Under the pieces are notes generated by a model. That model had not been told where the DNA came from. It did not search any database and saw only the letters and a program-made list of their open reading frames with translations. Both the position numbers and the translations under genes were made by a program. From Octopus vulgaris (taxonomy: Eukaryota), in the NCBI GenBank assembly GCA_951406725.2, contig OX597815.1:118420001-118484000 (forward strand): a stretch of 64,000 nt of DNA, written 5' to 3'. Positions within the stretch are counted from its first letter, which is position 1. Each line of letters begins with the position of its first letter. Of this stretch, positions 11,527-11,567 are shown in pieces.

Positions 11527-11567
11527 ACTTTTGACAATCTTTTACCAAAGAGTGAAACCGGTTAAGT
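11527..11567 (+). ncRNA. minimal type I hammerhead-like ribozyme (U3-A8 variant)
   Basis: ACTT-TTGACAA-[TCTTTT ACCA AAGAGT]-GAAA-CCG-GTT-AAGT: 4-bp stem I, stem II, palindromic stem III AACCGGTT, predicted GUU site at 11563. Confidence 0.6.

Follow-up and report, generated by a model that had tools for sequence, protein, structure and literature searches.

U3-A8 hammerhead motifs in the pLTRs of a young Neptune-type Penelope-like retrotransposon family of Octopus vulgaris likely still cut

The window (the whole 64,000-nt stretch of Octopus vulgaris contig OX597815.1 analysed here) contains a 41-base motif at 11527-11567. By its letters and context, it is a family-wide pLTR hammerhead of a young Neptune-type Penelope-like element (PLE). 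We consider it probably a functional, slow, family-level ribozyme, with self-cleavage predicted at a probability of about 0.7. Among related elements in this genome, each of the four Watson-Crick pairs occurs at positions 3:8, which suggests that the U3-A8 motif likely still cuts. PLE hammerheads cut weakly, and one element inserts without a cut in vitro. Pair-preserving 3:8 swaps across related active families offer comparative evidence for selection on catalysis.

The motif reads ACUU, UUGACAA, U CUUUU ACCA AAGAG U, GAA ACCGGU U and AAGU, with U3 at 11531, A8 at 11536 and U17 at 11563. The reverse complement of 7026-7066 is the same without any difference. The original prediction of hammerhead-like letters at both sites was thus confirmed by reading them. 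Against the consensus N3-U4-G5-A6-N7-N8-A9, G12-A13-A14-A15.1, U16.1 and H17, the only departure from a canonical core is U3-A8. This pair is Watson-Crick, and CUGANGA itself is absent. The self-complementary portion of stem III is ACCGGU, or AACCGGUU with its flanks. Stem II was read as U.U followed by C-G, U-A, U.G, U-A and U-A, a register supported by sister subfamilies, which keep U.U and then C-G and U-A or A-U. The features of the locus are as follows.

6934..6984: (TA)n target microsatellite, left end.
6979..9254 (-): left arm, an inverted 5'-truncated copy with a short 3' end without tail.
7026..7066 (-): the same motif in the inverted arm of one insertion; predicted cut after 7030.
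9057..9257 (-): the same RT-endonuclease C-terminal fragment as at 9261..9461, inverted arm (tblastn).
9261..9461 (+): C-terminal end (67 codons) of the RT-endonuclease ORF (tblastn, 97% to the full-length protein).
9264..11651 (+): right arm, a 5'-truncated PLE copy, 95-97% to the full-length copy L031+L032, with endonuclease end, microsatellite-rich 3' UTR, pLTR and long 3' end with a ~35-nt tail.
11284..11513 (+): ~5 copies of a 44-nt tandem unit within the pLTR, immediately upstream of the hammerhead; mirror copy at 7080-7307.
11527..11567 (+): minimal type I hammerhead motif with stem I ACUU/AAGU, U3-A8, U10.1-U11.1, 5-bp stem II, GAAA and palindromic stem III.
After 11563 (+): predicted cut of this motif, after U17.
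11651..11690: (TA)n target microsatellite, right end.

Both motif copies sit on the arms of one inverted insertion. The arms are ~95% alike across 4.7 kb, the centre of the repeat is near 9259, and (TA)n lies at both borders. The right arm's 3' end was common to 30 of 30 loci. As arms of a single 5'-truncated inverted insertion, the two motifs count as one observation and form no head-to-tail dimer in cis. Their presence at both ends of the palindrome adds no support. The insertion is dead, retaining only the last 67 ORF2 codons and the 3' region, twice and inverted, and its motifs would be passengers. It is very improbable that the two copies cooperate at the locus, for example through a hairpin RNA or palindrome formation. 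The motif is intact on both arms, and inverted pairs are frequent in the family. However, the opposite orientation leaves one sense motif per transcript, the inversion centre is 2.3 kb away in endonuclease codons, and inverted 5'-truncated copies are described as the usual PLE structure (PMC8557442). An RNA spanning the palindrome would carry a single sense motif, and this would likely pair with the antisense copy in the same RNA. Taken singly, the window's motif is an ordinary example of a published U3-A8 variant.

Some other repeats were seen nearby. The 44-nt unit (11284-11513, 7080-7307) includes UGACAA ... GAA, a loose likeness to the hammerhead core; in the closest sister subfamily (L101-L104), no such unit was seen immediately upstream of the motif. 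A different repeat adjoins the insertion on its right and covers 11750-13660; its - strand holds a 212-aa frame (12373-13011). Another long inverted repeat (50712-54566, 99% arms) surrounds a 488-aa frame (ORF 52732-54198, -), and a 428-aa frame lies near it (ORF 47665-48951, -). Both are probably other mobile elements.

A full-length copy (L031+L032) defined the element. It is 5,821 nt long and begins with a pLTR, followed by ORF1, ORF2, a 3' UTR that is long and rich in microsatellites, and the other pLTR. The motif occurs once per pLTR (L031:6153 and L032:1974, 5,821 nt apart), 85 nt before the element's 3' end and, in the 5' pLTR, ~120 nt ahead of ORF1 in non-coding sequence. The location in both pLTRs supports the earlier description of a putative minimal, dimer-dependent PLE hammerhead with a pair-preserving U3-A8 change. 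ORF1 encodes 447 aa (L031:6310-7650) and overlaps ORF2 in the -1 frame; no Pfam family scored above cut-off for it, and six relatives were found. ORF2 encodes an RT, a CX4CxxC zinc-finger-like linker (CGRPNCKTC) and, at the C-terminus, a GIY-YIG endonuclease with CEGC...H...H (CCHH), and contains EADKG (DKG). Pfam reported only RVT_1 for this ORF2, and the GIY-YIG call was made from the visible motif and from relatives that carry both RVT_1 and GIY-YIG. A protein of Octopus bimaculoides shares 83% identity with ORF2. By its motifs and the (TA)n targeting, we term the element Neptune-type; DKG, the linker and CCHH fit Neptune or Nematis alike. By the definitions in PMC8557442, the Hydra clade (DKT, CxCX5C linker, no CCHH) was ruled out by DKG, the linker and CCHH. 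The Naiad/Chlamys PLEs, with an N-terminal endonuclease, were ruled out by the C-terminal one here. The smallest difference between full-length copies is ~0.25%, and both ORFs were open in two of the four examined. With a family so young and its ORFs intact, the question of catalysis is testable.

ORF2 may be expressed by frameshifting or reinitiation. The ORF1/ORF2 overlap has a U UUU UUA heptamer (L031:7600-7650; L084:1270-1300), a slippery-site type that occurs in known frameshifts. The U UUU UUA run is also present in a sister family of 57% identity, and 'FL' stands near the C-terminus in five of six ORF1 relatives. ORF2 relatives begin with Met at the same place, a point against frameshifting.

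The 2.8-Gb genome was searched for the motif. The search gave 919 candidates, and the 40 scored ones were all 100% identical over 126 nt. The 33-nt core had 679 exact genomic copies, whereas its reversed-pattern control had none, indicating that the motif is not a chance match. The case raised originally against it, a family consensus with canonical CUGANGA, was checked, and the genome held 0 canonical matches in the clade's stem II context. In contigs of four runs from four other organisms, no variant of position 3 or 8 was seen at a 10% share, while U, A and C all occurred at position 17. By these counts, U3-A8 is fixed in the family.

To avoid circularity, 30 loci were chosen by endonuclease homology alone; they are mostly of one family. 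Their downstream cores were U3-A8 in 23 (two with another core change), A3-U8 in two, U3-G8 in two and A3-A8 in one; two loci had no intact motif, and none of the 30 had C3-G8. The two U3-G8 copies have identical flanks and possibly represent a small wobble subfamily. A large endonuclease-bearing family (L172-L200) has U3-A8, a 2-bp stem II and the motif ~190 nt past the ORF, with U3-G8 in two copies. U3-A8 accompanied RT-endonuclease fragments of 81-90%, 53-57% and ~42% identity to those of the window element. We regard it as highly improbable that the motif arose by chance in AT-rich DNA or by decay of a canonical hammerhead, one copy having acquired two C/G-to-T/A mutations. Such an origin would agree with the lack of a significant Rfam match, with C-to-T and G-to-A changes being common, and with the few U3-A8 members of a C3-G8 tandem-repeat family. 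It is refuted at the family level by the exact copies and the missing canonical version, and is opposed by the motif's presence in intact full-length copies ~0.25% apart and in families of 42-57% protein identity.

The 3:8 pair was then counted genome-wide with patterns that fixed stem III as GAAACCGGUH and left out stems I and II, each with a reversed-pattern control. Ten of the 16 possible 3:8 cells were counted, and copies are not independent. With spacers of 10-24, which allow three stem II pairs and miss families with a 2-bp stem II, matches (controls in brackets) were 8,951 for U3-A8 (77), 306 for C3-G8 (38), 300 for C3-A8 (44) and 199 for U3-G8 (32). With spacers of 6-24, they were 1,808 for A3-U8 (342), 175 for G3-C8 (68), 139 for A3-C8 (528), 92 for G3-U8 (83), 246 for A3-A8 (339) and 143 for U3-U8 (100); some repeat raises the A-C, A-A and A-U controls, which therefore give little guidance. 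Spacers of 6-9 added 2,874 U-A (20) and 9 C-G (7), partly counting twice one family with two registers. U3-A8 was thus ~30-fold commoner than C3-G8 with this stem III. It is the commonest such core in this genome and no rarity.

The six mismatched pairs gave 92-300 matches each, mostly scattered single mutants. Recurring groups made up 24 of 100 C-A and ~15 of 100 A-C matches among those listed. Ten copies of these groups were read and rejected as hammerheads, being other repeats without stems I and II; the A-C repeat also raises the A-U count slightly. G17, reported to impair minimal hammerheads, had 150 matches (control 22) versus 8,951 for H17. As the families are few, this scarcity is weak on its own.

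The A-U and G-C match lists consisted mostly of recurring families with their own stems. Of the 30 A-U loci, 24 were family-like, and of the 12 G-C loci, nine; eight and two of these, respectively, had an RT or endonuclease fragment just upstream. The pLTRs of an A3-U8 sister (L221) and a G3-C8 sister (L233) are homologous, with 77% identity over 348 nt. Examples of A3-U8 sisters are L221:1501-1527 (+), L208, L215 and L205, and of G3-C8 sisters L231, L233, L238 and L232; many of these cores have only a 2-bp stem II and a tetraloop. A ~359-nt tandem repeat (L054-L060, L066-L067, L072-L077) is retrozyme-like and carries a canonical C3-G8 hammerhead with the same stem III. Its diverged members L114, L115 and L162 have U3-A8.

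Conservation and covariation, proposed originally for checking in aligned genomic copies, were both observed: besides the exact copies, stems I and II covary across families. Among 61 distinct U3-A8 strings (60 loci plus the window; the seven rows of the family with two registers are probably in the wrong stem II register), stem I was 77% paired versus 39+/-3% across families, and stem II pairs 2-4 were 85% paired versus 43+/-3%. In 22 hand-picked subfamily representatives (26 rows minus L106, a single mutated arm, and three long or irregular rows), stem I was 92% paired, with double-sided changes at four of four pairs. The whole-structure score was 0.81 versus 0.18 for shuffled rows, including the 3:8 pair and stem III, which were fixed by choice. 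In the nearest sister subfamilies, position 17 changed among U, A and C only. A 16-row endonuclease tree placed U-A in three lineages, A-U in two and G-C in two long-branched rows; its base lacks resolution, and the order of changes is not readable from it. One of its rows, L204, combines an endonuclease with a probably nested motif. With Watson-Crick pairs swapped, mismatches low and stems I and II covarying, the pattern at 3:8 points to selection on the catalytic pair.

A wider reading joins these results, and we hold it tentatively, at slightly less than even odds. EN+ Penelope-like families of one genome would have fixed all Watson-Crick 3:8 pairs, mostly U-A, A-U and G-C, and A3-U8 would have flipped to G3-C8 between sister pLTRs. 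All of these motifs would be catalytically active natural ribozymes, with damped self-cleavage selected in the transposition cycle. CUGANGA censuses would miss more than nine in ten of them, and some PLE clades scored as hammerhead-free may carry them. The natural panel of C-G, U-A, A-U and G-C, with and without U.U and GUU, suits rate and transposition assays.

The motif itself was missed by standard searches, as no Rfam hammerhead family (clan CL00010) came near threshold; the best, HH9, scored 11.6 bits versus a gathering score of 52 (E 3.2). The earlier expectation that CUGANGA searches would miss it was thus borne out, and standard descriptors heavily undercount such motifs in this genome. 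The predicted minimum-energy fold of the monomer is not a hammerhead (-5.4 kcal/mol), and the fold stability of 11515-11650 had a z of 0.42. In co-folding of two copies, the short palindrome ACCGGU formed the intermolecular helix. The hammerhead dimer was predicted at -8.9 kcal/mol versus -16.7 kcal/mol for the best dimer fold, 7.8 apart. For a sister family with G10.1-C11.1, co-folding came close to the hammerhead dimer. The motif's clade (15 rows) has U.U at 10.1-11.1 and lacks G10.1-C11.1 with an extra nucleotide after A9, and G-C occupied 10.1-11.1 in 17 of 26 subfamily representatives. G10.1-C11.1 with the extra nucleotide is described as typical of minimal PLE hammerheads, not as a requirement (PMC4209133).

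Copy ends were analyzed for traces of cleavage. Downstream of the motif, two end sites occur among the copies, ~35 nt apart and each adjoining (TA)n. At the 5' side, 26 of 30 ORF1-start copies reached upstream past the cut site (some rows being the same insertion), and the others began at +1 (one only), +24, +59 and +68. No pile-up of 5' ends at the cut site was seen in these 30 copies. As most copies pass the cut site and only one starts at +1, cut linear RNA is not the usual template. Reverse transcription mostly running past the cut site suggests an uncut precursor or a re-ligated circle. In inverted insertions, the arm not chosen by the query lacked the tail in 13 of 13. Each inverted insertion had one tailed and one untailed end (window 6979 and 11651; L033-L050), as if both reverse-transcription start sites were used in one event. 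A head-to-tail array at G000:C2:55956679-55968391 (L253, L254) has three hammerheads at distances of 5,830 and 5,824 nt, and both ORFs of its first unit are open. Its two tandem units (G000:C2:55.96 Mb) share 11 substitutions versus another copy and differ by seven, which fits a circle or tandem donor.

These ends could also mean that the fold is kept for protein binding or RNA dimerisation and that catalysis is vestigial, at least in the U3-A8 + U.U + GUU subfamily. We consider this unlikely, at perhaps one chance in five. The weak predicted fold of the window subfamily and the 26 of 30 copies passing the cut site agree with it, as do published accounts of in vitro insertion by the Poseidon element PAc when cleavage is absent and of Naiad elements that spread while lacking canonical hammerheads. 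However, variable yet pair-preserving 3:8 states and G17 avoidance across families fit catalytic needs, and the nearest sister subfamilies restrict position 17 to U, A and C.

We favor slow cleavage. Once two copies pair through the palindromic stem III, the RNA would cut itself slowly after U17, likely assisted by the element's own protein. From known hammerhead chemistry, U3-A8 should preserve the active-site pair, and U.U at 10.1-11.1 with the A/U-rich frame should reduce the rate. The role of the cut would be to shorten read-through or tandem transcripts to single units. Reverse transcription would start downstream of the motif, at one of the two sites adjoining (TA)n, and mostly pass the cut site.

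Several parts of this scheme have precedents. U3-A8 ribozymes are natural and active in vitro, and U10.1-U11.1 is a natural mismatch, the best tolerated there (Perreault 2011, PMC3088659). That study resembles ours in the natural U3-A8 covariation, the natural U10.1-U11.1 and 2-bp stems II; unlike ours, it does not report them for animal retrotransposons, and the passages compared mention only U3-A8 at 3:8. For minimal PLE hammerheads, cutting is reported to be weak and to require a dimer or a lengthened stem III (PMC4209133).

The closest known systems are the Cercyon PLEs of Schistosoma mansoni (Cervera and De la Pena 2014, PMC4209133). They share a minimal type I hammerhead in pLTRs, U3-A8, a short stem I, a palindromic stem III, the dimer model, and most copies being solitary or in inverted pairs. 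GUU, the triplet of the window motif, is present in the S. mansoni(4) row; our literature search turned up no measured rate for GUU. The S. mansoni hammerhead described as assayed is Sm1, not the U3-A8 families. There, U3-A8 (~1,300) is below C3-G8 (~2,000), whereas here U3-A8 is ~30-fold commoner with this stem III. The window clade has U10.1-U11.1 in place of the extra nucleotide and G10.1-C11.1 of Cercyon and, unlike Cercyon, a 2-bp stem III with a CG loop. The part of the Cercyon alignment compared has no A3-U8 or G3-C8 row.

As an element, the family resembles Neptune/Nematis (Craig et al. 2021, PMC8557442) in an RT with DKG, a CX2-5CxxC linker, GIY-YIG with CCHH, (TA)n targets, pLTRs, an inverted 5'-truncated copy, a 30-40-bp tail on one end and a 3' hammerhead. 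It differs in its separate 447-aa ORF1 overlapping ORF2 in the -1 frame; a frameshifted ORF1 is mentioned in the Fig. 1 legend of that paper. Poseidon PAc of Anolis carolinensis (Frangieh et al. 2024, PMC11167929) likewise has two reverse-transcription start sites defining the tail, a hammerhead upstream of them and genomic ends away from the cut site. Its hammerhead depends on the PAc protein and is rescued by C3G/G8C, and the cut is dispensable for insertion in vitro. PAc has a canonical C3-G8 core overlapping the start codon and a single ORF, whereas the motif here is in a non-coding pLTR.

The original prediction was right that the U3-A8 variant is real and overstated its novelty, since U3-A8 in PLE pLTR hammerheads was published in 2014 and is the commonest core here. 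U3-A8 in PLE pLTRs (2014) and U10.1-U11.1 (2011) are already in print. A literature search that covered subscription papers and supplements sparsely found no natural A3-U8 or G3-C8 hammerhead, and the G3-C8 passage it found describes an engineered variant. What is added here is that related families within a single genome supply a four-way 3:8 panel, in which the canonical core has a small share.
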